Positions 15,433 through 64,000 of a DNA stretch of 64,000 bases are shown piece after piece. Numbering within the stretch: the first letter of the stretch is position 1; each line of letters begins with the position of its first letter. The notes beneath the pieces were generated by a model. That model was not told the origin of the DNA and did not search any database. It was given only the letters and a program-made list of their open reading frames with translations. The translations under genes were made by a program, and so were the position numbers. This DNA comes from Candidatus Omnitrophota bacterium (GTDB lineage: Bacteria > Omnitrophota > Gorgyraeia > Zapsychrales > Aceulaceae), in contig JAQUUP010000001.1 of the NCBI GenBank assembly GCA_028693815.1, positions 72,433 through 136,432 on the forward strand, written 5' to 3'.

Positions 15433-15607
15433 GGTAAAAATCTCCCTTCTATGATTAGCCCCACATTTTACGCTTAAGACTAGCATGCGCAATTTAGCTT
15501 TTCTCCAAAAATGTTTAAGAAAAGCGGGGTTTACTTTGATTGCCTAAATGTTTTTTATCGAACAATTAGGATTAAGAGCATTCTAATAATTCAAGAATGC
15601 GAGTCAA

Positions 15608-20146: not shown

Positions 20147-20214
20147 TTCTTCCCCCAATACAATATTAAATAAAATAAATTCAAAAGCTAAAATCTAAAC
20201 TAATTTATTATCTT

Positions 20215-37548: not shown

Positions 37549-37698
37549 TCTTTTTTAATCCACTAGTTTTAAACATGATTTTTTTTTATAAGTTCTTTGT
37601 TTTCTTATAGTTTTGTTCTTATTCAAATTATTAACAGGCACTACGATAACTACAACTATTTTTTTTAAAATAGTTAGAATCATTTTTTTGTAAAGGAT

Positions 37699-38799: not shown

Positions 38800-38803
38800 A
38801 AAA

Positions 38804-41553
<2,750 letters not shown>

Positions 41554-41592
41554 AGGAAAATAGATATTTTTAAGAAAGGTTAGAAAAAAAAG

Positions 41593-44046
41593 ATGAAAGA
41601 TTTTACGACGAAAGAAAAAATACTCCCAGTTAACATTGAAGAAGAAATGAAGACGTCTTATCTTTCTTATGCGATGAGCGTTATTGTTAGCCGTGCATTG
41701 CCAGATGTTCGAGATGGGCTTAAACCAGTTCATCGACGAGTATTGTATGCAATGAAAGAATTAGGCCTTGAACACAGCAAGAGTTATAAAAAAAGTGCGC
41801 GTATCGTTGGTGAGGTTTTAGGTAAATATCATCCTCATGGAGACACAGCTGTTTATGATACGATTGTGCGTTTGGCTCAAGATTTTTCTATGCGCTATCC
41901 ATTGGTAGATGGTCAAGGAAATTTCGGGTCTGTAGATGGAGATTCTGCGGCAGCTATGCGCTATACTGAAATACGCATGGAATCAATTTCCGAAGAAATC
42001 TTAAAAGATTTAGAGAAAAAAACAGTTGATTTTAGTCCAAATTTTGACAACACTCTCCAGGAGCCGCAAGTATTGCCATCGGCAATCCCTAATCTTTTAG
42101 TTAATGGATCAAGCGGCATTGCTGTTGGGATGGCAACAAATATGGCGCCTCATAACCTAGAAGAAATTTCTGACGGAATTATTGCTCTTTTGGACAAACC
42201 AGAAACAACGATTAAAGAATTAATGAAGTATGTTAAAGGACCAGATTTTCCAACGGCAGGCATTATTTGCGGACGCCAAGGTATTGTAGATGCATATACA
42301 ACTGGACGAGGAAAAATTACTTTAAGAGCGAAAGCTGTGATTGAGAGGCAAAAAGGAAGCAAGGATAGGATTGTTGTTACAGAGCTTCCCTATCAAGTTA
42401 ACAAAGCTAATCTAGTTGAAAACATAGCGCATCTTGTGCAGGATAAAAAAGTAGATGGCATTACAGATCTTCGAGACGAATCTGATAAAGACGGTATTCG
42501 GGTTGTTGTTGATCTTCGTCGAGATGTGCAGCCAGAAATTATTCTAAATTATCTTTATAAACACACTCAGATGGAGACAACTTTTGGAATTATTAATTTA
42601 GCACTAACGAATAATCAGCCTAGAGTTTTAAATCTTAAGCAGTTAATGAATTATTTTCTAGAACATCGTCGTGTTATTATTAGAAGACGAACCCAATTTG
42701 ATCTTGATAAAGCGCTGCGCCGAGCACACATTCTTGAAGGATTAAAAATTGCTTTAAAATTTATCAATCAAATTATTAAAACAATCAAAGAGTCTAAGAC
42801 AGCGCAAGAAGCCAAAAAAGCATTGATGAAGAATTTTGATCTTTCAGAGATTCAAGCGCAAGCTATTCTTGAAATGCAGTTGCAGAGATTAACGGCTCTT
42901 GAACAAGATAGATTGGAATCAGAATATAAAGAACTTTTAAAAAATATTGAGATGTTTCGGTCTATTTTAGGGTCAGAAAAGAAAATAGATGGAATTATTA
43001 AAGAAGAAATTCTTTATATAAAAAAGAAATATGCCGATGAGAGGCGAACGGAAATTGCTGGGAAAGCCGAAGAAATTGAGGTTGAAGATTTGATTGCGGA
43101 AGAAGATATGGCCATCACAATTAGTCATACAGGATATATTAAAAGACTTAGCGTTGATGCTTATCGTAAACAAAAACGTGGAGGAAAAGGTGTTTCAGCG
43201 ATGACAACAAAAGAAGAGGATTTTGTTGAGCATTTGTTTGTTGCTTCATCGAAAGATTATCTTTTGATTTTTTCTGATAAGGGAATTGTTCGTTGGCTTA
43301 AAGTTTACGAAATTCCGGTTGCATCACGTAATTCTAAAGGAAAGGCGATTGTTAACCTTCTTTCTGTTGGAGCTGATGAGCGCATTAGTTCGATTGTGGC
43401 GGTCAAAGAGTTTAGTGACGAAAAGTTTGTTATTGCGACAACAGCGCAAGGAAACATTAAAAAAACAAAACTCTCTGCTTACAGCAATCCTCGAAAAGGA
43501 GGCATTGTTGGAATTACCTTAGAAAAAGGAGATGTTTTGATTGGAACCGATATTAGTGACAGCAGCTGTGAGGTTCTTTTAGCTACCAGGGAAGGAAAAG
43601 CTGTTCGGTTTCATGAAAAACAAATTCGGGATATGGGGCGAAGTGCCAAGGGTGTTCGCGGCATTCGATTAGGGAAAAAAGATGCTGTTGTGAGTATGGA
43701 GGTTATGTCTCCTGGTATCGAAAAAACAGGAAGCACATTTTTAAGCGTAACTTCTAAGGGGTTTGCGAAACGGACAGATTTTTGTGATTATCGCCAGCAA
43801 TCGAGAGGCGGGAAAGGAATTATCAATATTAGTGTCACGGAAAAGAATGGACATGTTGTTCGAAGTCTTTCTGCAACGCCAGAAGATGAGATTATGGCTA
43901 TGACTAAAAAAGGGATGGTTGTTAGATGCTCTGTTAAGGATATTCGGCAAACAGGGCGTAATACGCAAGGAGTCAGGCTGATCAATTTGGACAAAGATGA
44001 CGTTGTTAGTTCTGTTGCAAGTGTTGTAGCTAAAGAAGAGGAGTAA
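41593..44046 (+). CDS. gyrA: DNA gyrase subunit A
   Basis: The [22 protein letters not shown] block spans the catalytic Tyr and the QRDR. C-terminal beta-pinwheel repeats. Confidence 0.95.
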
Positions 44047-52658: not shown

Positions 52659-53165
52659 ATGGAAGAAAATAATTCTCAGCCACAAGAGGAAGAAAAAAAA
52701 GAAGTGGGAAATGAATCAGAGCTTGATAATTTAAAAAATGTTTTGGACAAAGCTGATCAAGAAGCAGAAAATTTGAGCATTGAATCAAAGGAAGATATCG
52801 TCGAAGAAGAGGAAGAGTTTTTAGGTGTGTCTCCTGAGGAAAAAGAACAAGATAGCGTAAAAGAATCGGCAATAGAAGAGCCGCAGCCTGCTTCAGAAAT
52901 CCTAGAAAGCGTTTCAGAAGATGCTCAAAATGTTGCTGCAGAAGAAGTTGCAGAGACTCCGAAAGAAGTTCAAGGTGAGCCGAAAGAAAATATTGAGCCT
53001 CAAGAGGGAAAAGAAGAAAAGTTAGATCAGGAATTAACAGAAGAAAAAGAAGCAATTTTGCAACAAGATCGGCAAAAAGATACGCATGAAACAAAACTAT
53101 CTTTTAACGAAAATGTAGATAAGCTTGATCAGATGATAAAAGATTTTAGCAAAAAAGAAGAATAA
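52659..53165 (+). CDS. Highly acidic, Glu-rich low-complexity protein immediately upstream of the pilus locus
   Basis: 168 aa, about a third Glu/Asp. Its own RBS region. The antisense Leu-rich ORF 52570..53094 is treated as a mirror artefact. Confidence 0.4.
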   Translation: MEENNSQPQEEEKKEVGNESELDNLKNVLDKADQEAENLSIESKEDIVEEEEEFLGVSPEEKEQDSVKESAIEEPQPASEILESVSEDAQNVAAEEVAETPKEVQGEPKENIEPQEGKEEKLDQELTEEKEAILQQDRQKDTHETKLSFNENVDKLDQMIKDFSKKEE

Positions 53166-53240: not shown

Positions 53241-53696
53241 ATGAATAAGAAGAATGCTCAATCGCCTCTAGAATATATTATGATTATTATTGCTGTTATT
53301 GCGTCGATCACAGCGATGGGGCCGTATGTTATTCGGGGAGTTAATGCTTATATGCGTTCTTGGGAGATTTCAGCTGAACAGACACAAAGAGACACAAGGG
53401 CGCGCTTAAATGCTTGGGAGGTTCCAGGGGCAGAGCCTCCTTTGTCTGTTGAATGTGGATATTTTTCTACTGACCAGAGCGGTTGCAAGGCAGCTGTTGG
53501 TGAAGATGGAAGTCGGTGCTGGTGGTGGCAGCAATACGAAGAAGTGACTGATAATCCTGGTGATTGCGCTGTTACCTTTGATACATGTAGGATGAGAGGA
53601 TCAACAACTTCGGGATTTATTGTTATAAATGGATGCACCATGAGTGATAATTTTTGTAACGTAACATATGACGAGGATTGTAATTTTGCGACTTAG
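53241..53696 (+). CDS. Flp/TadE-like pilin with N-terminal prepilin motif and Cys-rich (8 Cys) C-terminal domain
   Basis: MNKKNAQSPLEYIMIIIAVIASITAMG (A/QSPLEY is a Flp-type motif), then C-rich ECGYF..GCKAAV..RCWWW..CAVTFDTC..CTMSDNFC..DEDC. Confidence 0.55.
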   Translation: MNKKNAQSPLEYIMIIIAVIASITAMGPYVIRGVNAYMRSWEISAEQTQRDTRARLNAWEVPGAEPPLSVECGYFSTDQSGCKAAVGEDGSRCWWWQQYEEVTDNPGDCAVTFDTCRMRGSTTSGFIVINGCTMSDNFCNVTYDEDCNFAT

Positions 53697-53740
53697 GTTC
53701 TTTATTTAAACGGGAGAAACCCAAAAAAATTAGAAAAATG

Positions 53741-53769
53741 TTGTACTGACCTCGATTCCCCAGTATAAT
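53741..53769 (+). promoter_or_regulatory. Sigma70-type promoter (TTGTAC, 17 nt spacer, TATAAT) ahead of the PPIase-cpaB-secretin-cpaEF operon
   Basis: TTGTACtgacctcgattccccagTATAAT. The operon's first gene starts with GTG behind an AAGGAGG RBS. Confidence 0.45.
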
Positions 53770-53812
53770 CAAATATACATATTTTTAATAACAATATTTT
53801 AAGGAGGTTTTT

Positions 53813-54778
53813 GTGAAAAAGAAGCAATTATTTATATTTTTTAGTATTTTTATACTTTTATCGACAACAGGTTGCGATAAGTTTTCTTTTTTAGAGGATT
53901 ATTTCCCTTCTCTTAAGAAAAACAAGAAAGAAAAAGTTGTTCAGAAAGAAAATATTAAAAGTGGCCAGAACGAACCTGTTAAAAAAGAAACAATAGTTTC
54001 TGCGAAGCCTGAAGCACCTCTTGCTAAAAATGTTTTAGTAAAAATGGGTGACTGGACGATGACGATTGAAGAATTTAAGGAGAAAACAAAAGGGTTAAAA
54101 GAAGTTTTGCCGGAATACGACGAGAATGACCCTGAAACAAAAAAATTAGTTTTAGAAGAATTGATTCGTCAACAGCTTTTAGTTGAGGCTGCTAAAAAAA
54201 GAGGGATTGATAAAAAAGAAACGGTTGTTGCTGCTATCGAAGAATTCAAAAAAACTCTTTTAGTTCGTGAGCTGGCTGTTGAGATTGCTGAAAGCATTGT
54301 CGTTACAGATCAAGAAGCTAAAACATTTTATGATGAGAATCAAGAATTATTTAAAGAGCCAGATCAGTGGCGTATCCGAGAGATTCTTGTTGACAATGAA
54401 GCAAGAGCAAAAGAATTGGCTGTTGCTCTTTTGCAAGGAGCAGACTTTGCACAAGTGGCTCGAGAAAACTCTATTGCTGAAACAGCTTCTAGCGGGGGAG
54501 ACACGGGATTTGTTGTGGAATTTGAAGATCCAAAAATCCAAAATGCTGTTTTTACATTAGAGCCAGGCTCTGCGAGCAATGTTTTTAAAGGAGACAAAGG
54601 ATATTATATTGTTAAGCTCGAAGAAAAAAAGCAAGGAATAATGCAGAATTTTGAGGATGTGAAAGAAGAGTTAAAAGAAGGCCTTGTAGCGATGAATCAA
54701 CAGCAAGCGATTATTGATTATGTTGAAACTTTGCGATCAGAGGCGAATATTGAAATTAACGAAGATCTTTTAAAATAA
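53813..54778 (+). CDS. Parvulin-type peptidyl-prolyl isomerase lipoprotein (SurA/PrsA-like), GTG start
   Basis: Lipobox LLSTTGC. PpiC domain GGDTGFV...GSASNVFKGDKGYYIVKLEE. Confidence 0.7.
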   Translation: MKKKQLFIFFSIFILLSTTGCDKFSFLEDYFPSLKKNKKEKVVQKENIKSGQNEPVKKETIVSAKPEAPLAKNVLVKMGDWTMTIEEFKEKTKGLKEVLPEYDENDPETKKLVLEELIRQQLLVEAAKKRGIDKKETVVAAIEEFKKTLLVRELAVEIAESIVVTDQEAKTFYDENQELFKEPDQWRIREILVDNEARAKELAVALLQGADFAQVARENSIAETASSGGDTGFVVEFEDPKIQNAVFTLEPGSASNVFKGDKGYYIVKLEEKKQGIMQNFEDVKEELKEGLVAMNQQQAIIDYVETLRSEANIEINEDLLK

Positions 54779-54788
54779 AGGCTGGTCT

Positions 54789-55607
54789 ATGGCTATTGAT
54801 TTTAAAAAATTTAATAATAAGCAAATTGGCATTGTTATTTTGGCGGTGATTGCGGGGATTGTGGCCATTGTGTTGACTAATAACTATATCAATACGACGG
54901 TTTCAAAAGGAGCTTCGTCGGAAGAGATTAAGGCTTTGTTTGAAAAAATACAAAAACTAGAACAAGAAAACAAGTCGCTTTATCAGCGACAAGACGCCTA
55001 TGCTGGCCAAATTCAGCAAAGGCTTGATTCGTTTTCCCAAACACAGGCACAACAGCGTCAGGCCCCACCAAAAGAAAACGGAGACATTGTAAAACCTCAA
55101 TCTCTGGCCCTCAAAACACCTTCTGGTAAAAGAGCGATTACGGTTAAGATCGAGACTTTATCTGCTGTTGGAGGCTTGATTAATCCAGGGGATTTTGTCG
55201 ACATTTTAGTTCATATAAAAGCAAATGGTTCAAGTTCTGGAGAAAAAACAACAGTTACATTATTCCAGAATATTCAAGTTTTAGCTATTGGCTATAATGT
55301 TGAGATGCCTGCAAATTTTGAAGCTCAACAAAAAACAGCTACTCTTCCTATAACATTAGCTGTTGATCCAGAACAAGTTGAGATGATTACATTTGCTGAA
55401 ACACATGGAAATCTTCAGCTTGTTTTAAGGGGCCCAAGAGAAACGAGAGAAGAACGTTTGCCATCGGGCAATTGGGATACATTTAACAAATATCTCTTAG
55501 AAGAGCAAGGAGTTGTTGTTAGCTCTCCAGCGTCGCCGAAAGAAACCGTAGATCTTAACGAAAAAGAACAATCTAATATTCAAGTTTTTCGAGGGGGAGT
55601 AGAATAA
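54789..55607 (+). CDS. cpaB: Flp pilus assembly protein CpaB/RcpC (N-terminal TM, SAF and RcpC domains)
   Basis: RAITVKIETLSAVGGLINPGDFVDILV...LFQNIQVLAIGYNV matches the CpaB SAF/RcpC pattern. Confidence 0.7.
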   Translation: MAIDFKKFNNKQIGIVILAVIAGIVAIVLTNNYINTTVSKGASSEEIKALFEKIQKLEQENKSLYQRQDAYAGQIQQRLDSFSQTQAQQRQAPPKENGDIVKPQSLALKTPSGKRAITVKIETLSAVGGLINPGDFVDILVHIKANGSSSGEKTTVTLFQNIQVLAIGYNVEMPANFEAQQKTATLPITLAVDPEQVEMITFAETHGNLQLVLRGPRETREERLPSGNWDTFNKYLLEEQGVVVSSPASPKETVDLNEKEQSNIQVFRGGVE

Positions 55608-55614
55608 AAACTTT

Positions 55615-57255
55615 ATGAAAAAAAATATTTCAAAAAAATATATTGGATTTTTTATTTTTGTCGCGACAGTCTTTTTCTTAATAGCGGCAGCGCCTGAAGC
55701 GTTTTCGAAAAGTTTCAGGGAAACAATTGGTGCTTTTGGAGAGGATACCCTTGAGATGGTCGTCGGAGATCTTGATACAATTTGGACTAAAGAATTGACA
55801 AGGGTTGCCGTTACAGATCCTTCTGTTGCGGATGTGGTCGAAACAAGCGCATCTGAGATTTTAATGTCAGGAAAAAAAGCTGGTAAAACAACTGTTTTTA
55901 TTTGGGATCAATATGGAAAGAGATCAATCGTCGTTTGGGTGTTTGAGGAGAATTTAGATCTCGTCGAAACACGATTGAAATCTCTTTTGCAGAGCGCTGG
56001 CATTAAAGACTTAGAGTTTAAAGAAAACGCACTTGAAGGAAAGATTGTTGTTTCTGGTGAGCTCGATGACGCAAAGAAAAAGGAATTTGATGGTATGGTT
56101 GAGCCTTTTTCAGATAGCATCGTGAATCTTGTTAAAGAAAGAGAAAAAAAAGAGCTTATTGAAATTGATATTCAAATATCAGAGATTAATACAACGGTAA
56201 CAAAGAATTTAGGAATTGAATGGACCAACTCTGAAGGCGGAGGAAGCTTAGAGTACGATGAAACTTTACCAACATTTAATCCTAACGCACCCACTGATTT
56301 TTTCAAAATAGGCGATTTTGCTAGAACCACGGCGCTTAAGGCAACAATCAATGCGCTTATTACTGAAGGAGAAGGAAAGGTTCTCTCTCGGCCAAGAATT
56401 GTTATGAAAAGCGGAGAAGAAGCTAGTTTTTTAGTTGGAGGCCAGATTCCCGTTAGCACTACAACGACAACCGAAGGTGGCAATGTTACACAAAACATAG
56501 AGTTTAAAGATTACGGAGTTGATTTAAATCTTAAGGCTATAGTAAAAGAGGACGATAAGATTGACATTGAGCTTAAGGTTGAGGTAACAGATGTCGACAG
56601 CTCCTATATTGTTTCTGGAAACTATGCCTATACGACACGTACAGCAGAAACAAAGCTTCTTTTGGACAACCTTCAAACCGTTGTCTTGGCAGGATTTATT
56701 AAAGACAATAAAGCAGAAAATATCTCTAGAGTCCCATTCTTGAGTGATATTCCTATATTAGGAGCTATTTTTAGAAATAAAAGCACAGACCCAAATAAGC
56801 AAACAGAGCTTTTCATTACTTTGACGCCTAAAATTATTTCAAGAAACCGTATGGCAGAAAGTGATGATGTAGAAGAAAATATTGTAAAAGCGACTCCAGT
56901 TATTGAGGAAAAGCCCATTTCAACAGCTAAGGAAACATTTCGGTCTATTTCGGTTCCAGCAAATATAGCAAATTATGTTAAAGCGATTCAGAGAAAAATT
57001 GCTGGAAATCTTATGTATCCCGAGGATGCCAGACAGTCCAATTTTCAAGGAGCTGTTGATTTAGAGCTTGTGCTTCTTAGAAACGGCGCTCTTTTGTCCG
57101 CTTTGATAAGCCAATCTTCCGGCTATCCAGTTTTAGATCAAGCTGCGCTTAATACGGCACAGCGTTTTTCCCCTTATGGAAATTTTCCTTCAGATGTTAA
57201 TGCTAGAGAAATAACAGTAACAATTCCTATTGTCTATCGACTAGACATGGATTAA
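55615..57255 (+). CDS. cpaC: Tad-type secretin (CpaC/RcpA) with an added C-terminal TonB-C-like domain
   Basis: Secretin core VLSRPRIVMKSGEEASFLVGGQIPV...RVPFLSDIPILGAIFRNK. The C-terminal 100 aa YPEDARQSNFQGAVDLELVLLRNGALLSALISQSSGYPVLDQAALNTAQRFSPY follow the TonB_C pattern (YP..A....EG.V.....V...G......SSG...LD.AAL.A). Confidence 0.8.
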   Translation: MKKNISKKYIGFFIFVATVFFLIAAAPEAFSKSFRETIGAFGEDTLEMVVGDLDTIWTKELTRVAVTDPSVADVVETSASEILMSGKKAGKTTVFIWDQYGKRSIVVWVFEENLDLVETRLKSLLQSAGIKDLEFKENALEGKIVVSGELDDAKKKEFDGMVEPFSDSIVNLVKEREKKELIEIDIQISEINTTVTKNLGIEWTNSEGGGSLEYDETLPTFNPNAPTDFFKIGDFARTTALKATINALITEGEGKVLSRPRIVMKSGEEASFLVGGQIPVSTTTTTEGGNVTQNIEFKDYGVDLNLKAIVKEDDKIDIELKVEVTDVDSSYIVSGNYAYTTRTAETKLLLDNLQTVVLAGFIKDNKAENISRVPFLSDIPILGAIFRNKSTDPNKQTELFITLTPKIISRNRMAESDDVEENIVKATPVIEEKPISTAKETFRSISVPANIANYVKAIQRKIAGNLMYPEDARQSNFQGAVDLELVLLRNGALLSALISQSSGYPVLDQAALNTAQRFSPYGNFPSDVNAREITVTIPIVYRLDMD

Positions 57256-57278
57256 AAAAGTGATTTTAAAAGGAAACA

Positions 57279-59438
57279 ATGAGCGCAAAAACAACCGTTG
57301 TTTTTAGCACTAAAGGGGGCGTTGGAAAAACTTTTGTTGCCCTTAATTTGGCTGTGGAAATGGCTTCCAAAAGAACAAAAGTTCTTTTGCTTGATTTTGA
57401 TCTTCAGGCGAGCCAAGATTTGGCTAGAACAGCAAATATTAAAACAGAAAAATCTATTGTTGATATTCTTTCTAATAATGAGTCCCTGGAAAATGCAGAG
57501 ATGATTGTTAAGGCGTGCTCTAAACATTCGTCTGGAATTCATTTTCTGCCATGTGTGACTCATGTCGATCAAGTTCCTTTGATTAATCAAGAGAAAATTA
57601 TATTGTTTTTCAAAAAAGTTGCACCTCTTTATGACTATATTATTGTCGACGGAGGAAAGGTTTTTAACGAGACGCTGATTACTGTTTTTGATCAGTCAAA
57701 TCTTATCTTGTTAACGGCAACGCCAGATATTTTAGCTGTTTTTCAGGCCCGATGGTGCTTGGATGTTTTAGAGAGACTTCATTTTCCAAATAGCATTGTT
57801 AAACTTGTTTTAAATCGATCGCAAAGTCGCGGAGGAGTTGCCTGGCAGGAAGTACGCTCTGCTCTCCCCTGTGAAATTTTTGCACAGATTCCATCGGACG
57901 GACATGCTGTTGGGCTTGCACTAAACAGAGGTGTTCCGTGTGTTTCGGATGCACCAGGTAGTCCTGCTAGCGAAGCTGTCAAGAAGCTCGCAGATCGATT
58001 AATCAAAGAAACAGTTTTTATTCAAGGAACAGAAGTTGCTCGCATTCGCACAACAACAAATTCTGGCCAAGAAGAGAATTTCTGGGAAAAGTTGGGAATT
58101 AGTTCAAAGATTTCAGAAAGCAAAGAGGTTTTGTCGGTTGCTCACGAGGATGATGAAATTATTAAGTTAAAGCAAGCTGTACACGACAAACTTGTTGATC
58201 GATTAAATTTAAGTACTATTACAACAGAAGCTTTAAGGGACCCTAAGCAATCTAAGAAAATTAGGGAAAGCACCGAAAAAGTGATTGGCGATCTTTTAGC
58301 TGAAGAGGCAGACGCCCTTATTTCTTCTCATGACGAGAGGAGACGATTGGTTAAAGAAATTGCTGATGAGACTCTTGGCCTTGGCCCATTGGAAGAATTT
58401 TTAGCCGACCCAGAGATTACAGATATTATGGTTAACAATAAAGATGAGCTTTATGTTGAAAAAAACGGACGCATTATTTTAACTAATAAAAAATTTATTT
58501 CAAATGGTCAAATTCGTGCGATTATTGAGCGTATTATAGCTCCTTTAGGACGACGCATTGATGAATCTGTGCCTATGGTTGATGCTCGACTTCCGGACGG
58601 ATCTCGTATCAACGCGATCATTCCTCCTTTGTCTTTAAAAGGACCAATGCTGACTATTCGAAAATTTGCACAAGACAGGATTACCGTTGAAGATCTTCTG
58701 CATATTCATCATTCTGTTTCGCAGCCAATGGTTGATTTTTTAAAAGCTTGTGTTTTGTCGCGAAAAAATATTATTGTTTCCGGTGGGACGGGATCTGGCA
58801 AGACAACATTGCTAAATGTTATTTCTTCTTTTGTCCCGGACGGGGAGCGTATTTTGACAATTGAAGATGCCGCAGAGCTTAAGCTTCGGCAAAGGCATTG
58901 GGGTCGGCTTGAGTCTCGTCCTCCTAATGTTGAAGGAAAAGGCGCCATTACAATACGAGATCTTTTTGTTAATTCTTTGCGCATGCGTCCAGATCGCATT
59001 GTTATTGGCGAATGTCGTGGGCCAGAAGTTTTAGATATGCTTCAGGCGATGAATACTGGGCATGATGGTTCTATGACAACGATTCACGCGAACACAACGC
59101 GGGATGTTTTAGTTCGCATGAGTTCTTTGATTTTGTTAAGCGGCTTAGATCTTCCGCTAAAGGCGATTTATGAAATGTTTTCAACAGCGATTGACATTGT
59201 TGTCCAGATTTCTCGATTTTCAGACGGAACAAGGAAGATCTCAGGGATCACAGAGATTGCCGGATTAACAAAAGAACGCGAAATCATAATGAAAGATGTC
59301 TTTGTTTTTGAACATCAGGGTATTAGTGAATCTGGAGAAATTTTAGGTGAATACAAGGCGACCGGCTATGTTCCAGCTTGTTTTGACGATTTTGCCAAAA
59401 GAGGTATTGCCATCACCAAAGATGTTTTTAATGCATAA
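57279..59438 (+). CDS. cpaEF: Single-polypeptide fusion of a TadZ/CpaE-like ParA/MinD ATPase (N-terminal 270 aa) and TadA/CpaF secretion ATPase (C-terminal 430 aa)
   Basis: N-terminal TTVVFSTKGGVGKTFVALNLA deviant Walker A. C-terminal IIVSGGTGSGKTTLLN Walker A, ILTIEDAAEL Asp box, GHDGSMTTIHAN His box. One uninterrupted 719-codon frame. Confidence 0.8.
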   Translation: MSAKTTVVFSTKGGVGKTFVALNLAVEMASKRTKVLLLDFDLQASQDLARTANIKTEKSIVDILSNNESLENAEMIVKACSKHSSGIHFLPCVTHVDQVPLINQEKIILFFKKVAPLYDYIIVDGGKVFNETLITVFDQSNLILLTATPDILAVFQARWCLDVLERLHFPNSIVKLVLNRSQSRGGVAWQEVRSALPCEIFAQIPSDGHAVGLALNRGVPCVSDAPGSPASEAVKKLADRLIKETVFIQGTEVARIRTTTNSGQEENFWEKLGISSKISESKEVLSVAHEDDEIIKLKQAVHDKLVDRLNLSTITTEALRDPKQSKKIRESTEKVIGDLLAEEADALISSHDERRRLVKEIADETLGLGPLEEFLADPEITDIMVNNKDELYVEKNGRIILTNKKFISNGQIRAIIERIIAPLGRRIDESVPMVDARLPDGSRINAIIPPLSLKGPMLTIRKFAQDRITVEDLLHIHHSVSQPMVDFLKACVLSRKNIIVSGGTGSGKTTLLNVISSFVPDGERILTIEDAAELKLRQRHWGRLESRPPNVEGKGAITIRDLFVNSLRMRPDRIVIGECRGPEVLDMLQAMNTGHDGSMTTIHANTTRDVLVRMSSLILLSGLDLPLKAIYEMFSTAIDIVVQISRFSDGTRKISGITEIAGLTKEREIIMKDVFVFEHQGISESGEILGEYKATGYVPACFDDFAKRGIAITKDVFNA

Positions 59439-59464
59439 TCTCACCGCTTTTTAATTCTTTTCTT

Positions 59465-59806
59465 ATGAGAATTCTTAATTTAACAGAAAAAACAATTGTT
59501 GCAGTAAAAGCAAAAGAGGCTAAAAGTTTTTTAGCTCGCCTCAAAGGTCTTTTGGGAAAAAAATTTTTTGGTCCTGAGGATGCGCTAGTTATCGATGGAT
59601 GTCAGGCGATTCATATGTTTTTTATGAAATTTTCAATCGACGTTCTTTTTATTGACCAAAAAAATAAGGTTGTAGGATTGGTTCAAAACATAAAGCCTTT
59701 TTGCATAAGTCCTTTTTTCTTTAGAGCAAGGCAGGCGATTGAACTTCCTGCAGGAAGCATTGAGAAATCCTCAGTTCATATTGGGGATTGTTTAGAAATA
59801 GAATAA
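59465..59806 (+). CDS. DUF192 family protein
   Basis: ARLKGLLGKK...IHMFFMKFSIDVLFID...ELPAGS matches DUF192. Confidence 0.6.
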   Translation: MRILNLTEKTIVAVKAKEAKSFLARLKGLLGKKFFGPEDALVIDGCQAIHMFFMKFSIDVLFIDQKNKVVGLVQNIKPFCISPFFFRARQAIELPAGSIEKSSVHIGDCLEIE

Positions 59807-59810
59807 TAAG

Positions 59811-60161
59811 TTATTCGATATTATCAAATGTATCACTTGCATCCATAACACGATCTAGCCATTGATGACAATGTTTACAGATTCGCGCTTCCTTAAAGAC
59901 TTTTTTTCCACAAAAAAAACATTTCTTTTTTTCAATACTTTTGTAATCAACATTAATTAAATCATCAATAATAAATTGGTCACAAAAAGGGCATTTTTTT
60001 GGTTGCTCTAAAACAGCTTCAAAACAATAGGGACATTTTTGCATAAAGAGTTTCCTTTCTTTTTTTATATTTTGAATGGTTTGTTTTATTTTGACAAGAA
60101 GAATTTTTGATTTTAATAAATAGAGAATAATTGCCTTTTTAAGCTTGACGTTGGTATTCAA
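59811..60161 (-). CDS. Double zinc-ribbon protein (three CxxC pairs). The true start is probably the internal Met (MQKCPYCF), which leaves the upstream region intergenic.
   Basis: CPYC..CPFC..CFFC..CKHC. The track start is a TTG 39 codons upstream of the first ATG. Confidence 0.45.
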   Translation of the reverse strand: MNTNVKLKKAIILYLLKSKILLVKIKQTIQNIKKERKLFMQKCPYCFEAVLEQPKKCPFCDQFIIDDLINVDYKSIEKKKCFFCGKKVFKEARICKHCHQWLDRVMDASDTFDNIE

Positions 60162-60174
60162 GCTAGGATATAAT
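60145..60174 (+). promoter_or_regulatory. Sigma70-type promoter (TTGACG, 18 nt spacer, TATAAT) on the plus strand, divergent from the zinc-ribbon gene
   Basis: aagcTTGACGttggtattcaagctaggaTATAATg. Confidence 0.4.
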
Positions 60175-60180
60175 GAAAAA

Positions 60181-60278
60181 AAGCATTTTGGACATTTTCT
60201 CTCTGGACATTCTTGTCTGATTTCTTTAGAGTTTTCTAGAAAAATCAGGCAGATGACCCCGCAAAGCGGGGTTTTATA
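60181..60278 (+). ncRNA. Candidate small RNA (about 100 nt) bounded by the promoter above and an intrinsic terminator. No homology assigned.
   Basis: Promoter-to-terminator unit with no ORF longer than 15 codons. Contains the direct repeat TGGACATT twice. Confidence 0.3.
60256..60278 (+). terminator. Rho-independent terminator (7-bp GC stem ACCCCGC/GCGGGGT, AAA loop, TTTTAT tract)
   Basis: gACCCCGCaaaGCGGGGTtttat read directly. The reverse-complement side lacks a U-tract. Confidence 0.55.
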
Positions 60279-60306
60279 AGAAAGATAATAATAAAAATTT
60301 TAATTC

Positions 60307-60438
60307 GTTCCGCTAGGCCGCGGAACTCACAGGGTAAATTCGAAAATCTAATCGGTGAATATCCCGATACCCTTCGGGTACGGGATAAATTCGCTCAATA
60401 AACTTATGTCGGCAAAATTGGCCTCCATAAGTTTGGAG
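60307..60438 (+). repeat. Hairpin-linker mosaic repeat array (3 hairpins, 2 TAAATTCG linkers) directly upstream of ORF 60446. The last hairpin sequesters the GGAG Shine-Dalgarno sequence.
   Basis: gttccgc-taggcc-gcggaac, tcccgataccc-ttcg-ggtacggga and ctcca-taagtt-tggag. Linkers GGTAAATTCGAAAATCTAATCGGTGAATA and TAAATTCGCTCAATAAAC align with the 21.8 kb linker TAACATTCAAAATCAAATGCTCAATA. Confidence 0.55.
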
Positions 60439-60445
60439 CTCATTT

Positions 60446-62080
60446 ATGGGTGTAACGTATAAACTAAAAAAAGAAGTTGTTGATTATATCCTTCTTCAAA
60501 AAAGGACAAGTCCTTCTTTGAGCTGTCGAAAAATTTCCGACTTAGCAAGTCAATTCTTTCAAAAAAAAATTTCAAAATCTTCTGTTAATACTATTCTTAA
60601 AACTTTTCTTTTGAGCAGTCCTATTGGACGCAGGTCGAGAGAAGACAAAAAACAAGAAAAATTTAAAATTCCAGAGTATCGAAAAAAAGAACTTTTTGTT
60701 AATGTGCCAAGGGAGCTCTTAGGCGAGGAACCGGCGGCTGTTGTTGTGCAGGAAAAGAAAGAGTATCCATTAAAGAAGCTGGGATCTTTTATTCTAAAGG
60801 CAGCTGAATTGCAGATAGCAAAAGAAGGGTTTGTAAGCTTTCTTACAGATTCAGCGGCTCAATCAGGTCTGGCAGGGAGTTTTTTGTATGCGCCTTTGTT
60901 TGGTATCAGTGATCAGAGCGTGTTAGCTGAAGAAATAGGTTGGCAAAAAATAAATGGAATAAACGCTTCTCCACCTACGCAAGAAATTCATCAAGCCACG
61001 GCAATGCTAAAGGATCTAGAAAATAAAAAACAAGAAATTAGTCTAAAGTCTTCTGAGATTTTTACAGAGGTCAAGTGTTTTAAATTTATTCTTAAAAATG
61101 GTAATATTTTTTGTATTGACGCGCAATTTAATTCAGTCTGGACAAAAGATAATGTCCATTCTAGCTTTTCTTTGCCTTTAGAGAAATCTCTTGATTTTTT
61201 ATCAAAAAAGATAGCGACTAACATTCGCCCTATTGTCTTGCGATGCGCTCCTGGCATTGAAAGTTTCCCATCTTATTTTTATACCATGTTAGCATGCTTT
61301 GAAGGATTTCCTTCTTACGGGGTCGCTCAGGTTGATCTTATTTCTAAACAAGACGAGATTCTCTCTTCCTTTGACACCGTTCTTCATAAAAGACGTCATT
61401 TCATTACATTTTTACCGAATTCTCATATGATTTTTGCCCAAGCTCTAGAAAAAAAAGGCGTAACACAAGAAAAAGCGTTTAATTTTATAAATCAAAATGT
61501 TTTGTATTCGGAGTCTGATCTTATTATTGAGAATCCTTTACTTGACAAAGAAATTAATTTACGGGCTTTTATTTTAAAAATCGAAGGACAAGAACCGTTT
61601 GTTCTCATAAGCAATATTCCAAAGCCAATTCAAATCGCAGAGCAAATTATCAATCAGTATTTTGCGCAGTGGCCGCATCCTGGGACTGGGCATCAAGATT
61701 TTATGATGACAAAAGAAGAGCCGACAACAAAAGATTGCTCGAATATGTTTTCTACCGACGAGAAGTCAGGCGAGGATGGGGAGTCGATGTTTCTTGGGGA
61801 AAGAAACACATTGGCGCATAATTTTCTAATGAATATGCACCGGTATTGCCGAGAGCATTTCTTTCCATCAAGTTGCAAGCAGTTTTCGTTTAAGGATGCG
61901 CAAAATGTTTTTTATCGTCTTTCTGGGTTCGCAGAGGAACAAGACGGCATTGTAAAAGTATCGTTAATTTTGCCGCAAGAATATACATATATAAAAGAAT
62001 TAAAATATATATTAAGGCGAGTCAATGAGAGCAACGCCTGCTTAAACCAGAAGATCCGGATTTTCTTTGCTAACGCCTAG
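60446..62080 (+). CDS. Hypothetical 544-aa soluble protein with N-terminal helix-turn-helix. Possibly a regulator or a degenerate transposase-like protein.
   Basis: N-terminal LSCRKISDLASQFFQKKISKSSVNTILK is an HTH like those of transposases and regulators. No DDE triad could be assigned by eye. Confidence 0.35.
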   Translation: MGVTYKLKKEVVDYILLQKRTSPSLSCRKISDLASQFFQKKISKSSVNTILKTFLLSSPIGRRSREDKKQEKFKIPEYRKKELFVNVPRELLGEEPAAVVVQEKKEYPLKKLGSFILKAAELQIAKEGFVSFLTDSAAQSGLAGSFLYAPLFGISDQSVLAEEIGWQKINGINASPPTQEIHQATAMLKDLENKKQEISLKSSEIFTEVKCFKFILKNGNIFCIDAQFNSVWTKDNVHSSFSLPLEKSLDFLSKKIATNIRPIVLRCAPGIESFPSYFYTMLACFEGFPSYGVAQVDLISKQDEILSSFDTVLHKRRHFITFLPNSHMIFAQALEKKGVTQEKAFNFINQNVLYSESDLIIENPLLDKEINLRAFILKIEGQEPFVLISNIPKPIQIAEQIINQYFAQWPHPGTGHQDFMMTKEEPTTKDCSNMFSTDEKSGEDGESMFLGERNTLAHNFLMNMHRYCREHFFPSSCKQFSFKDAQNVFYRLSGFAEEQDGIVKVSLILPQEYTYIKELKYILRRVNESNACLNQKIRIFFANA

Positions 62081-62245
62081 ATGTCACTTTCTTTTTTATT
62101 TCTTTGAATAACATGGATTTCCTGAGTTTCATATGCTATATTTAATATGAGAAATAAATTTCCATATAATGGAAAATCTCGGAAAATGAAAAAATTGCTA
62201 ACCGGCATTTTTTTTCTCAATAACCCAAAGCCACGGGAGAAAAAA

Positions 62246-62401
62246 AGTGAGATTGTTTCCTTTGAATAATAAAGCCCAGAATTTAATCGAGTATGCCATT
62301 GTCATATCATTAGTGGCGGCGGCTATGATTGCTATGAGTACGTATGTTTCCCGTTCAACGCAAGCGATTCAAAAACAGATTGAAGAAGAAATGCGACAAT
62401 A
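62246..62401 (+). CDS. flp: Flp-family pilin (about 51 aa, GTG start; not in the ORF track)
   Basis: VRLFPLNNKAQNLIEYAIVISLVAAAMIAMSTYVSRSTQAIQKQIEEEMRQ*. Motif A/QNLIEY plus a hydrophobic helix. RBS GGGAGAAAAAAA. Coordinates approximate within 1-2 nt. Confidence 0.5.
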
Positions 62402-62437
62402 GCTATGATTTATTATTAATAAAAAAAGGAGGAAATT

Positions 62438-62644
62438 GTGTTAAAACTATTGAGAAATAAAAAAGGGCAGAGCACGTTGGAATATATTCTTTTGATAACA
62501 GCTGTTATTGCGGTGGCTATTATTTTCTTAAATCCGACAACAGGGCAGTTTGGTCGAGTTCTTAATGATACACAGAATACAATCTCGAGTGAAATAGATG
62601 AGGCTGGGGTAGATTTAGCTGGGAATATTAGAGTTTCATTATAA
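62438..62644 (+). CDS. flp: Flp-family pilin (GTG start)
   Basis: LLRNKKGQSTLEYILLITAVIAVAIIFL. The G/QSTLEY motif equals the Flp G/XXXXEY processing motif. AAGGAGG RBS. Confidence 0.65.
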   Translation: MLKLLRNKKGQSTLEYILLITAVIAVAIIFLNPTTGQFGRVLNDTQNTISSEIDEAGVDLAGNIRVSL

Positions 62645-62670
62645 AAGAATAAGCAAAAAAGGAGGAAATT

Positions 62671-62865
62671 GTGTCAAAATTATTGAGAAACAAAAAAGGA
62701 CAGAGCACGCTGGAATACATTCTTTTGGTAACAGCCGTTATTGCGGTGGCTATTATTTTTTTAAATCCGGCAACAGGACAGCTTGGCAATATTCTTGGCG
62801 ACACATACAACACAGTTGCAAACGAAATGAACGCAGCCGCTAACACTTTATCTGGGGCGTTTTAA
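62671..62865 (+). CDS. flp: Flp-family pilin, tandem paralog of 62438 (GTG start)
   Basis: The N-terminal 40 aa are near-identical to the previous gene. Identical RBS context aaaaaaggaggaaattGTG. Confidence 0.65.
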   Translation: MSKLLRNKKGQSTLEYILLVTAVIAVAIIFLNPATGQLGNILGDTYNTVANEMNAAANTLSGAF

Positions 62866-62896
62866 GCTTAACTATAAAAAAGAAAAAAAGGAGGAG

Positions 62897-63274
62897 ATGA
62901 TGATGAGGTTTTTAAAAAACAAGAAAGCGCAAAATGTTGCTGAGTATGCTATTTTGATTGCTTTGGTTGTTGGTGCAATTATTGCTATGCAAACATTTGT
63001 CAAAAGAACCATGCAAGGAAGACTTAGAGATGCTTCGCAGTATTTGACAGATAATAGTAATTTTGGTGCCGGTGGGGCAACTACTTACAGCACTGGACAA
63101 TACGAGCCTTATTATACACAAAGCAACTATGCTACCACGCGCACTGCAAATGAAATGCAGGCAGTTACTGCTGGTCAAGCGAGCTTGATATCAAATACAG
63201 ATACAACAAGAACAGGTTCTTCGAATACGATGTATGACACTACTGCCACTATTGGCAATGGAATAGCGTTTTAA
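62897..63274 (+). CDS. Flp/TadE-like minor pilin (125 aa) with Thr/Ser/Asn-rich C-terminal tail
   Basis: KNKKAQNVAEYAILIALVVGAIIAM (A/QNVAEY). GGAGG RBS. Confidence 0.55.
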   Translation: MMMRFLKNKKAQNVAEYAILIALVVGAIIAMQTFVKRTMQGRLRDASQYLTDNSNFGAGGATTYSTGQYEPYYTQSNYATTRTANEMQAVTAGQASLISNTDTTRTGSSNTMYDTTATIGNGIAF

Positions 63275-63372
63275 TAATGATGTTGGAAAAAAGAAGAAAG
63301 TTTAAGAAGCATAAATAATGGTTTTTGTAAGAGGGTCGCTAATATACATTGAATAAATAAAGAGGAGGGAGA

Positions 63373-63678
63373 ATGCCGTATAGATTAAGAACAAAAACAG
63401 CCCAAAGTACTCTGGAATATGCTGTCCTTATTGTGATTATTATCGGTGCCTTAATTGCTATGCGGACATATTTAAATAGAGGCATTCAGGGCAAGCTTAA
63501 ATCGTCAACTGATGATATTTCTTCAGGTCAGTTTGATCCAAGCGCTACGACGTATTCGAAAGAGACTAACAGTTCTAGCACAACTCGTGAGATCGTTCAA
63601 GACGGCCAAACGAATTCTGCGCTTATCGGGCAAGAGTTAACAAGTGTTCGAGAAGATTCAGCAACTGATATTGAGTAA
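63373..63678 (+). CDS. Flp/TadE-like pilin (101 aa) with Ser/Thr-rich tail
   Basis: KTAQSTLEYAVLIVIIIGALIAM. GAGGAGGG RBS. Confidence 0.55.
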   Translation: MPYRLRTKTAQSTLEYAVLIVIIIGALIAMRTYLNRGIQGKLKSSTDDISSGQFDPSATTYSKETNSSSTTREIVQDGQTNSALIGQELTSVREDSATDIE

Positions 63679-63746
63679 AAAAATGAGATTGTTGGTTGAA
63701 ATTAATAATATTTAGGCTGAACTAAAAAAGCAAGAAAGGAAAAAAG

Positions 63747-64000
63747 ATGCTGTTAAAAATAAAACAAAAAACAGCCCAAAGTACTCTGGAGTATGCTGTC
63801 CTTATTGTCATTATTATCGGTGCCTTGATTGCTATGCGGACATATTTGCAAAGAGGCATCCAGGACAAGCTTAAATCATCAACCGATGATGTTTCCTCTG
63901 AACACTTTGATCTGACGGGTACAAATTATACGAAAATAACCAATAGTTTCAGTAGGACAGCAGAGGATACTTATGCTGGGCAAATAGACACCACTCTTCG
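63747..64000 (+). CDS. Flp/TadE-like pilin, paralog of 63373 (3' end beyond the window)
   Basis: MLLKIKQKTAQSTLEYAVLIVIIIGALIAMRTYLQRGIQDKLKSSTDD. About 45 aa near-identical to the previous gene. Confidence 0.55.
   Translation, partial: MLLKIKQKTAQSTLEYAVLIVIIIGALIAMRTYLQRGIQDKLKSSTDDVSSEHFDLTGTNYTKITNSFSRTAEDTYAGQIDTTL

Follow-up and report, generated by a model that had tools for sequence, protein, structure and literature searches.

A probable Tad (type IVc) pilus cluster of an Omnitrophota bacterium in which a pilin block separates tadA from tadB and tadC

The DNA analyzed here (the window, 64 kb in length) comes from an uncultured Omnitrophota bacterium, a MAG close to Ca. Aceula, and its last part raises the question of what kind of machine is encoded by a locus with a secretin, a motor ATPase and many pilin-like proteins, but with no evident membrane platform. 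An earlier note had proposed a Tad/Flp-type locus with a rearranged core. The Tad/Flp assignment is borne out by Pfam and PDB matches, which indicate a type IVc system, and by a prepilin motif restricted to the locus. Positions 53241-64000 very probably make up the first ~11 kb of a Tad (type IVc, Flp) pilus cluster of roughly 20 kb in all, and the platform looked absent because the window stops partway through the pilin genes. The order proposed for the cluster is a Cys-rich pilin-like gene, parvulin, rcpC, rcpA::TonB_C, tadZ::tadA, DUF192, a zinc-ribbon gene (- strand) and a gene for an HTH/Tn5-like protein, followed by 8-10 small pilin genes, a ~540-aa pseudopilin, a ~90-aa TadE-like pseudopilin, a ~1000-aa Cys-rich membrane protein, tadB and tadC. 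The parts are identified, their order is conserved, and tadB and tadC lie downstream in the Omnitrophota genome under study; this reading is drawn from gene sequences, and the functional roles are predicted throughout.

The relatives compared were L003-L005 (Aceula lacicola), L006 and L007 (ATPase 64% identical), L008 and L009, and gene order matches in every related locus fetched. The combination of gene order, fusions and pilin expansion, which had been thought undescribed, is therefore not unique: it recurs in Omnitrophota with ATPases 64-87% identical. Among the envelope and motor genes, all on the + strand, the claimed parvulin, CpaB homolog, secretin, CpaE-CpaF fusion and DUF192 protein were each confirmed by a Pfam match. 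The parvulin-type PPIase (53813..54778; Rotamase_2 6.2e-20, SurA_N_2 4.5e-4), found at the matching position in L003, L006 and L007, begins with a signal peptide that ends in Cys; the protein is a candidate lipoprotein that may assist periplasmic folding. It is followed by the RcpC/CpaB periplasmic ring protein (54789..55607; PF16976 RcpC 1.6e-27), with a single N-terminal TM-like segment, and by an RcpA/CpaC-type secretin (55615..57255; NCBI MDD3374201.1) in which T2SS-T3SS_pil_N (9.8e-12) and Secretin (7.7e-42) domains are joined to a C-terminal TonB_C domain (1.6e-15), an architecture that recurs in L003-L007. The TadZ-TadA (CpaE-CpaF) fusion ATPase (57279..59438, 719 aa; MDD3374202.1) has an N-terminal ParA/MinD domain (AAA_31/ParA at residues 1-240, Walker A motif KGGVGKT) and, as its C-terminal part, the CpaF motor (T2SSE at 367-642, 6e-58); in comparison with the PDB, residues 299-706 match Caulobacter CpaF (1.6e-113) and residues 9-234 a ParA-family ATPase (1.6e-13). 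Its best 120 database matches are all 716-737 aa long, at least 60% identical and from Omnitrophota throughout, the closest being from Ca. Aceula lacicola (87%). The 113-aa DUF192 protein (59465..59806; PF02643 1.3e-15), whose gene holds the matching position in L003-L009, is a conserved accessory.

When the whole 64-kb window was scanned in six frames with a regular expression ([GAS][QSA]xxxE[YFL] followed by at least 11 hydrophobic residues), exactly seven pilin sites were matched, and the one extra match was an antisense artefact without a start codon. The [G/A]-Q-x3-E-Y prepilin motif thus occurs in seven + strand genes, all real ORFs, and nowhere else in the 64 kb, in agreement with the seven genes noted earlier except that the start given as 62246 is corrected to 62247. 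The predicted cut is followed by Gln (+1) and preceded by Ala or Gly (-1) in all pilins, and a strong Shine-Dalgarno sequence (AAGGAGG) lies upstream of four of the seven genes. The first gene of the cluster (53241..53696), recognized by the motif scan, encodes a 151-aa pilin-like protein with a class III-type signal (NKKNA↓QSPLEY) and hydrophobic helix, a single TM-like segment (residues 8-34), and a C-terminal domain rich in Cys (8 Cys); its positional orthologues in L003 and L006 have the motif GPYV(I/L)RGVN in common with it. The pilin block begins with a Flp-size pilin of 51 aa (62247..62402; NNKA↓QNLIEY; motif scan, Flp_Fap E 0.0028, sub-threshold), the L006 orthologue of which has a precomputed Flp_Fap match, and continues with a tandem pair of Flp-size pilins, of 68 aa (62438..62644; NKKG↓QSTLEY; Class_IIIsignal 2.9e-8; perfect Shine-Dalgarno sequence; TRF repeat of period 233, 2 copies) and 64 aa (62671..62865; Class_IIIsignal 6.3e-8). 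Next come a longer pilin-like protein of 125 aa with a Ser/Thr/Tyr-rich C-terminus (62897..63274; Flp_Fap E 0.0054, sub-threshold), probably a minor pilin, with orthologues in L003 and L009, and a second pair, comprising a 101-aa pilin-like protein found by the motif scan (63373..63678; 100-101-aa orthologue in L003 and L009) and a copy recognized from its sequence that runs past the window end (63747..64000).

The Pfam scan, which covered the six complete genes and not the partial 63747, upholds the family assignment in part: the proteins of the 62438 and 62671 genes pass PF04021 Class_IIIsignal (33.8 and 32.8 bits vs a gathering score of 23.7), but the Flp_Fap gathering score is reached by none of the window's pilins, the matches of 62247, 62438, 62671 and 62897 being below threshold (E 0.001-0.005), and 63373 has no pilin-family Pfam match and 53241 no Pfam match of any kind. 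The tandem pairs, described previously as near-identical, are so only at their 5' ends: identity is 87-88% over the first 120-150 nt and 57-59% beyond (about 75% DNA identity in all), and overall amino acid identity is 69% for 62438/62671 and 67% for 63373/63747. Tandem duplication specific to this lineage is upheld for two pilin genes, which L003, L006 and L009 have in single copy. Each relative has 10-11 signal-motif genes.

The zinc-ribbon and HTH genes, which lie between the ATPase gene and the pilins, are not an insertion peculiar to this locus: they are at the matching position in all relatives examined. The zinc-ribbon protein (59811..60044, - strand; 77 aa from the ATG, although the ORF as called mechanically extends to 60161) has four CxxC pairs (8 Cys) and sub-threshold Pfam matches only, the best being Zn_ribbon_3 (8.4e-5; 22.3 bits vs a cut-off of 27); the L003 and L006 orthologues, of 77 aa and 74 aa, are likewise encoded on the - strand. 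The top-scoring promoter in a scan of the region is sigma-70-like (TTGACG-18-TATAAT, 60145..60174, + strand; 11/12 matches), is followed on its 3' side by two TGGACAT direct repeats, and is kept in L003 and L006 (alignment A1). It precedes a leader of about 270 nt (60175..60445, + strand), 5' of the 544-aa gene, with a folding energy of -91.8 kcal/mol (MFE; z = -6.2) and a module of a hairpin plus ACRGGRTAAATTCG that is present in two copies in the window and one in L003. The small RNA proposed here is structured, but an Rfam search of the leader matched no family and it is read instead as a leader behind a conserved promoter; the supposed repeat array is a two-copy 14-nt repeat, no more than chance expects. 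The 544-aa cytoplasmic protein (60446..62080, + strand), characterized by conservation and structure searches, has a highly conserved three-helix HTH at its N-terminus (Pfam HTH only E 0.16) and a body that is weakly Tn5-transposase-like (TM 0.2), two independent structure searches each ranking Tn5 transposase first among full-length matches. It is a candidate regulator of the pilin operon.

As the earlier note stated, TadB/TadC, a prepilin peptidase and TadD are not encoded between the ATPase and the pilins: a Pfam scan found no T2SSF, A24 peptidase or TPR pilotin there, nor among ORFs of at least 110 aa across the rest of the window. The conclusion that the platform proteins are missing does not hold, however. 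In relatives the pilin block leads into more pilin-like genes, ~540-aa and ~90-aa pseudopilins and a ~1000-aa Cys-rich membrane protein, with tadB-tadC last; those of L008 have one T2SSF domain each (5e-18 and 1.6e-13). In the genome under study a single 190,578-bp contig encodes the secretin, the ATPase, the 544-aa protein (4205) and TadB (MDD3374220.1), the last 18 accession numbers past the ATPase. Logan contig L010 (sample SRR22315505) carries part of a pseudopilin gene, genes of 90 aa and 1006 aa, tadB and tadC (T2SSF 1.1e-14), its TadB being 100% identical to MDD3374220.1, and L001 and L002, which derive from that sample too, are contained letter for letter in the window; an ORF of at least 1359 aa with a C39 domain lies 3' of tadC. 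Continuity from the window to tadB/tadC is inferred across about 2-3 kb (64000 to the start of L010) from accession order, the shared contig and synteny. The tadB and tadC genes do lie downstream, though at a distance of about 7 kb instead of directly adjoining, and they are set apart from tadA, which is not the case in the Aggregatibacter and Caulobacter loci. Neither the window nor any of the relative loci fetched yielded a prepilin peptidase, and pilin processing is therefore assumed; a Tad detection model permits TadV as a "loner" (PMC6668835).

Tad complexes in Omnitrophota have been published already. V. archaeovorus LiM is reported to have a complete Tad locus of about 17.5 kb (CP019384.1:12382-29832) that is expressed in co-culture (Seymour et al. 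2023, PMC10066038), and the same survey, which scored presence and phylogeny with TXSScan, detected TadB/TadC/RcpA in many Omnitrophota species; it concerns the same phylum and the same kind of system, but its available text does not describe gene order, fusions, pilin multiplicity or the HTH protein. Also published are the TadZA fusion and tad loci without TadV in Bdellovibrio, where PilD stands in for the absent TadV (bioRxiv 10.64898/2026.07.08.737194). Bdellovibrio bacteriovorus TadZA (K/RGGxGxS/T Walker A, linker to TadA) resembles the present fusion by architecture, and the loci of both organisms lack TadV and have several pilin/pseudopilin genes; however, the Bdellovibrio tad genes are dispersed, with tadC apart, whereas here all but the peptidase appear in one co-oriented cluster. 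With the canonical loci (Aggregatibacter flp-tadV-rcpCAB-tadZABCDEFG and Caulobacter pilA-cpaA-K) the cluster shares a core of Flp-like pilins, RcpC, RcpA secretin, TadZ, TadA/CpaF, and TadB and TadC with one T2SSF domain each, as well as the order rcpC-rcpA-tadZ-tadA. It differs from them in the fusion of tadZ and tadA, the TonB_C domain on the secretin, the regulator, pilin and pseudopilin genes that put about 11-13 kb between tadA and tadB/tadC, the lack of tadV and tadD, the additional parvulin, DUF192, zinc-ribbon and HTH genes, the number of signal-bearing genes (10-13 vs about 4-5), and the pilin cleavage motif ([G/A]↓Q vs G↓[A/V]).

The window by itself, with no T2SSF or A24 gene, would suit a novel Tad-like machine in which TadB/TadC and TadV were lost and replaced by the zinc-ribbon protein, an RNA and the 544-aa HTH protein. 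Such a machine is exceedingly improbable: platform loss is refuted by the tadB/tadC genes of L008, MDD3374220.1 and L010, tadB-tadC being found downstream in the organism's own genome and in every relative reaching that far; the leader RNA has no family match; and the zinc-ribbon and 544-aa proteins have no TM segments and therefore cannot be a membrane platform. The 544-aa protein is like Tn5/IS4-family DDE transposases in having an N-terminal HTH and then a mixed alpha/beta body, and it and the zinc-ribbon gene could be viewed as IS/transposon cargo splitting an ordinary tad operon; this is very unlikely, as both genes keep their position down to 64% ATPase identity, the promoter 5' of the 544-aa gene is conserved, the structural match to Tn5 is weak, and the family, which is large and unannotated (920 clusters, mostly full-length), has no invariant acidic residue. 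The 544-aa gene resembles a host gene in its evolution (66% identity, against 87% for the ATPase). At most, the case would be one of ancient domestication and not of interruption. A conserved Gln after the predicted cut site is a trait of EppA-dependent (Epd) pilins. The cut-site residues of all the pilins, together with the two that are above threshold on the archaeal Class_IIIsignal and below it on Flp_Fap, would fit an archaeal, Epd-like pilus of recent acquisition and not a bacterial Tad; short pilins above threshold on PF04021 are a point of likeness to Epd pili, as are two separate platform genes (following Denise et al. 2019), and Tad is thought to be derived from Epd-like systems (PMC6668835). 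Against this scarcely credible origin stand the secretin, RcpC and the TadZ-type domain, a CpaF-type motor (383 bits vs bacterial CpaF, 120 bits vs archaeal FlaI), tadB and tadC split with one T2SSF domain each, and close ATPase homologues that are all from Omnitrophota, hence bacterial, among the best 120 matches.

A different proposal, doubtful but deserving consideration, is a Tad-derived contact-dependent killing or secretion device, by analogy with Myxococcus Kil or the Bdellovibrio invasion apparatus, and not mainly an adhesive fibre; its effector or tip would be the large Cys-rich pseudopilins and the long C39-domain protein encoded after tadC. In the available text of the survey, Omnitrophota TadB/C group with Bdellovibrionales, and RcpA with predatory myxobacteria and Lysobacter (PMC10066038); the TadZA fusion is common to Bdellovibrio, which requires Tad to attach to and invade its prey; the pilin-like proteins are unusually numerous and large; and Omnitrophota long proteins are reportedly flanked by pilus and secretion genes. 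However, Ca. Aceula is described as a fermentative heterotroph, in a paper whose text has no pilus or Tad term (PMC8542988). This proposal concerns what the machine is used for biologically and does not conflict with the same molecular mechanism.

For the Tad pilus favored here, a hexameric motor of the CpaF type, with a ParA/MinD-like TadZ domain of its own attached to it, would drive a TadB/TadC platform that polymerizes short Flp-like pilins, the class III signal being cut before the conserved Gln by a prepilin peptidase presumably encoded elsewhere, as PilD is in Bdellovibrio. The fibre would exit via the RcpC ring and the secretin, whose TonB_C domain may serve as an anchor to the wall or an envelope partner, and the HTH protein, with a conserved strong promoter just 5' of the pilin block, probably controls pilin expression. 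Priming or capping of the fibre and adhesion to a host or prey surface are the probable tasks of the many longer pilin-like proteins and the large pseudopilins.

Comparison with the relatives examined shows that the Tad locus starting at 53241 of the window is complete and normal for its lineage, in which this Tad architecture is widespread. Between 53241 and 64000 every substantial ORF except one lies on the + strand, and the core components listed in the earlier note (a fused CpaE-CpaF ATPase, a CpaB homolog, a secretin, a parvulin and DUF192) are all supported by Pfam or PDB matches. The parvulin-type PPIase (53813-54778, +; Pfam Rotamase_2, 6e-20) has a signal peptide and is the sole candidate lipoprotein of the cluster; it is followed by RcpC/CpaB (54789-55607, +; Pfam RcpC, 1.6e-27) and by the RcpA/CpaC secretin (55615-57255, +; Pfam Secretin, 7.7e-42, and T2SS-T3SS_pil_N, 9.8e-12), whose N-domain is of the Tad type and which carries TonB_C as an extra C-terminal domain (1.6e-15). 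A literature search found neither a secretin-TonB_C fusion in Tad systems nor a link between pili and DUF192, here encoded at 59465-59806 (+; Pfam match). The zinc-ribbon protein, encoded on the - strand, is 77 aa long from an ATG at 60044 (the start used in relatives), and its four CxxC motifs are accompanied by sub-threshold zinc-ribbon matches in Pfam.

The ATPase is encoded on the + strand by a single uninterrupted ORF of 719 aa, with a ParA/MinD domain at residues 1-240 and a T2SSE domain at 367-642 (6e-58). The N-terminal domain matches AAA_31 (1.7e-16) and ParA (8.5e-11) in Pfam and resembles ParA/MinD proteins in the PDB (best match a ParA-family ATPase, 1.6e-13); residues 299-706 resemble the Caulobacter CpaF structures (1.6e-113). 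The protein is a ParA/MinD-like TadZ, a linker and TadA in one polypeptide, that is, a TadZA fusion of the Bdellovibrio type, and its Walker A motif, KGGVGKT, is the TadZ-type motif quoted for Bdellovibrio TadZA. It is identical to MDD3374202.1, its closest relatives are from Ca. Aceula lacicola (87% identity), and the best 120 matches, Omnitrophota proteins at 60% identity or more, all have lengths of 716-737 aa.

The TadB/TadC platform, which the earlier note had considered missing, is found further downstream. In relatives the small-gene block consists of eight genes with the signal motif and is followed by a ~540-aa protein sharing the pilin N-terminus, a ~89-aa TadE-like protein (20.9 bits vs a TadE gathering score of 22.9, E 4e-4, for the copy in L008, an Aceula lacicola locus), and a Cys-rich protein of ~1010 aa whose N-terminal part contains two hydrophobic segments. 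The ~540-aa and ~1000-aa proteins beyond the window have no Pfam match, and their N-termini are pilin- or TadG-like by eye only. The cluster ends with tadB and tadC, which encode polytopic proteins of ~285-290 aa with one T2SSF domain each (5e-18 and 1.6e-13); both single-domain genes are present in L008 and in another related locus, L009. A query with Aceula TadB retrieved MDD3374220.1 at 87% identity, just as the ATPases of the two genomes are 87% identical, and the contig that encodes it is 190,578 bp long. By exact look-up, the window secretin (MDD3374201), ATPase (4202) and 544-aa protein (4205) come from a contig of equal length. Accession order therefore places TadB 18 proteins past the ATPase, with 14 proteins between the 544-aa protein and TadB, close to the 13 expected from synteny together with the two duplications. 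Additional support comes from Logan contigs of sample SRR22315505, two of which (L001 and L002) are exact substrings of the window. A third contig of the same sample, L010, has part of the ~540-aa pseudopilin, genes for 90 and 1006 aa, and both tadB and tadC (T2SSF in each, 1.1e-14 for tadC), and its TadB is 100% identical to MDD3374220.1. Since ~2-3 kb between the window and L010 is unseen, the start of tadB is placed by synteny at probably ~6.5-7 kb past position 64000; tadB and tadC, two of the genes to be sought beyond that position, do lie downstream, though at this estimated remove. The platform-less core is an artefact of the window boundary.

Directly 3' of tadC lies a long ORF (L009 15431-19509, open at the contig end; L010 7289-8629; L008 ~15490-16237), within which all three independent assemblies end. 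In L009 it encodes at least 1359 aa with an N-terminal TM segment and a Peptidase_C39 match (2.4e-7), and it may belong to the long or giant proteins that Omnitrophota are reported to encode beside pilus genes. An rRNA operon after tadC in L009 was considered and rejected, as Rfam returned nothing and a single long ORF, which continues past the contig end, occupies the stretch.

The gene order, for which no described counterpart had been known to the earlier note, recurs in L003-L009. In the Aceula lacicola loci (L003-L005 and L008), in L009, and in L006/L007, where the ATPase is merely 64% identical to the window TadZA and the order is still kept, the arrangement is identical to that of the window: a pilin-like gene, parvulin, RcpC, secretin::TonB_C, the ParA::T2SSE fusion, DUF192, the zinc ribbon (-), a large protein of 543-978 aa lacking Pfam matches, and the small-gene block. 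Because the same order is found, gene for gene, around orthologous ATPases, the layout is common to the Omnitrophota relatives examined and is not special to this locus. Two local variations were observed at or next to the 5' end of the cluster. In Aceula lacicola an extra 494-aa protein with ~10 TM segments (L003 4978-6462) is encoded between the first pilin-like gene and parvulin, a spacer of only 116 nt in the window; and a very acidic, low-complexity 168-aa protein without family match (52659-53165, +), which precedes the first pilin-like gene and may or may not be part of the cluster, has a 156-aa counterpart at the same place in Aceula lacicola and is absent from that place in L006.

A prepilin peptidase (TadV/CpaA) is indeed absent between the ATPase and the pilins: Pfam Peptidase_A24 matched no scanned ORF of the window or related loci, and the signature G-x-[GAH]-D-x-[KR] occurs in no hydrophobic ORF of the window or L001-L010. 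This absence does not disqualify the Tad assignment, because TadV may be a loner in the published Tad detection model (PMC6668835) and because Bdellovibrio tad loci, which have the TadZA fusion, lack TadV and rely on the T4aP peptidase PilD to process Flp1 (bioRxiv 10.64898/2026.07.08.737194). Type IVa pilus genes are described by Seymour et al. (PMC10066038) as common in Omnitrophota classes other than Velamenicoccia. No called gene in the related clusters examined matches a TPR Pfam family, as would a TadD-type pilotin; TadD is an accessory component in the published detection model (PMC6668835).

The pilin-like genes were sought in all six frames of the whole window using the pattern [GAS][QSA]xxxE[YFL] with 11 or more hydrophobic residues after it. 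This returned precisely seven genes on the + strand (starting at 53241, 62247, 62438, 62671, 62897, 63373 and 63747, the last partial) and one extra match, an antisense artefact without a start codon; all seven genes to which a prepilin motif had been ascribed were recovered, and the window holds no other genuine site. A perfect Shine-Dalgarno sequence precedes four of the seven. Assignment to the Flp family is borne out by HMM searches only in part: 62438 and 62671 score above the gathering threshold with the archaeal Class_IIIsignal model (Pfam), but Flp_Fap reaches only 17-19 bits in four genes, below its gathering score of 32.2, and two of the six complete genes scanned have no pilin HMM match. 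For 62247, a precomputed Flp_Fap match exists in the L006 orthologue. Against the PDB, an N-terminal pilin profile picked up no Tad pilin; its sole match was Geobacter PilA-N, through the generic leader of type IV prepilins. In all copies the predicted cut site is preceded by Gly or Ala and followed by Gln. Archaeal Epd (EppA-dependent) pilins also have a conserved Gln after the cut site; the literature search found nothing usable on an Epd pyroglutamate link.

The two tandem pairs had been described as near-identical with divergent C-termini. The pairing and the divergence hold, with 87-88% DNA identity over the first 120-150 nt and 57-59% in the 3' parts, but protein identity is just 69% and 67%. 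Each pair corresponds to one gene in L003, L006 and L009, and the pairs are therefore lineage-specific duplications that later diverged in the exposed C-terminal part. The Flp-size products of 62247 and 62438/62671 are candidates for the major subunit, and the longer Ser/Thr-rich, Cys-rich, ~540-aa and ~1000-aa proteins are candidate minor pilins and tip adhesins.

In the intergenic stretch 60045-60445 lies a near-consensus promoter (TTGACG-18-TATAAT, 60145-60174), which among the sigma-70-like sites of the 11 kb scores best and is kept in L003 and in the more distant L006. Two direct TGGACAT repeats come next (about 60189-60211); promoter and repeats together (60145-60215) form a candidate operator in front of the HTH-protein and pilin genes. 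The ~270-nt leader past the promoter folds far better than shuffled sequences (z = -6.2). The proposed small RNA is structured, but it is the leader of the 544-aa gene and has no Rfam family, the only match at E <= 1 being at chance level (20.8 bits vs a gathering score of 174.8). Compared with Aceula lacicola the leader has ~100 nt of extra hairpins (60276-60393); a module consisting of a hairpin plus ACRGGRTAAATTCG occurs twice in it, 51 nt apart, and once in Aceula, which resembles duplication in place rather than a repeat dispersed through the sequence. The supposed repeat array reduces to this two-copy 14-nt repeat, whose motif is not enriched in the window.

The 544-aa protein (60446-62080, +) has no family match in Pfam, NCBIfam or PDB sequence searches and no TM segment. 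Its family comprises 920 clusters at 50% identity, all lacking annotation, in which the first ~80 residues are nearly invariant and the remainder diverges fast. An AlphaFold model built with 18 homologues is confident (pLDDT 82.6), and Foldseek independently ranked Tn5 transposase first for it, at a TM-score of merely ~0.2. An IS4/Tn5 DDE transposase identity was nevertheless rejected: no acidic residue that could belong to a D, D, E core is invariant among the 18 family members (the most conserved are D225, 89%, and D438, 94%, the latter in a low-confidence loop), and the gene keeps a fixed place in L003-L009, with the zinc-ribbon gene on one side and the pilin block on the other. A search of the upstream side (60040-60450) found no terminal inverted repeats, the arms pairing within that stretch and not with the far side of the gene. 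The 544-aa protein is read as DNA-binding and possibly descended long ago from a transposase; its position and domain content suggest that it may regulate the adjacent pilin operon. In more distant Omnitrophota the HTH family protein reaches 900-980 aa (e.g. L006 12978-15914), with the extra length inserted past the conserved N-terminal HTH, and in a search of representatives several members of 908-968 aa match in two stretches.

Elsewhere in the window, a stand-alone PilZ-domain protein (12591-12986, -; 3.3e-15) is a possible c-di-GMP receiver, and PilZ proteins have been noted near Bdellovibrio tad genes. Between pheS and pheT lie adjacent ~490-aa paralogues (18680-20158, -, and 20215-21675, -) with LbR_Ice_bind beta-roll and YadA-head repeat matches, possibly surface adhesins. 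The window spans the replication origin region (dnaA, dnaN, gyrB and gyrA at 36184-44046, with parA/parB/yidC divergent upstream), and the Tad cluster starts 17 kb past dnaA; for V. archaeovorus, the coordinates given for the Tad locus are 12.4-29.8 kb of the genome record.

The protein families suggest how the machine would work. A CpaF-type motor, acting via the TadB/TadC platform, would power pilin insertion into the fibre and possibly extraction too, CpaF being bifunctional in Caulobacter (PMC11300603). Fusion to TadZ would couple the motor to the factor that determines where the machine sits; the TadZ portion of the Bdellovibrio protein binds RomR, a polarity hub (bioRxiv 10.64898/2026.07.08.737194). 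RcpC would form the periplasmic conduit (PMC12307814), with the secretin as pore in the outer membrane. The TonB_C domain and the parvulin may stand in for the absent pilotin and anchor functions.

Omnitrophota are uncultured, mostly ultra-small and suspected to be host-dependent or predatory, and Tad machinery is among the main genomic arguments for this view. Tad in this phylum is already published: PMC10066038 reports a "complete", expressed Tad locus in V. archaeovorus and TadB/C trees in which Omnitrophota group with Bdellovibrionales, the one support for a common origin with Bdellovibrio TadZA. The TadZA fusion and the absence of TadV from tad loci, in which the present locus resembles Bdellovibrio, have likewise already been described there (bioRxiv 10.64898/2026.07.08.737194). 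For the fixed cluster order, the secretin::TonB_C fusion, the pilin number with its archaeal-style signal and the HTH family, no description was found in the literature covered, though some of them may already be described by Kizina et al. 2022.

These results remove the false lead of a "platform-less" pilus and put in its place features that go beyond presence/absence surveys: the order of the genes is fixed, ATPase and secretin are both fusions (TadZA and secretin::TonB_C), 10-13 genes encode pilin-like proteins in which Gln occupies +1, a local peptidase is lacking, and a large HTH family lacking annotation stands at the head of the pilin block. Annotation models could be improved with these features (TXSScan, for example, may under-call Omnitrophota pilins and pseudopilins), and experiments in the V. 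archaeovorus enrichment could be guided by them. A further proposal, which we put forward tentatively and consider rather improbable, is that the Omnitrophota-type Tad constitutes a distinct and hitherto undescribed type IVc sub-architecture, with a TadZ::TadA motor, a TonB_C-anchored secretin, archaeal-style [G/A]|Q signals cut by a non-local peptidase, a very large Cys-rich pseudopilin tip, and a dedicated regulator with a Tn5-like transposase as its ancestor. If this is true, these ultra-small bacteria could use the machine to attach to host cells or to attack them.
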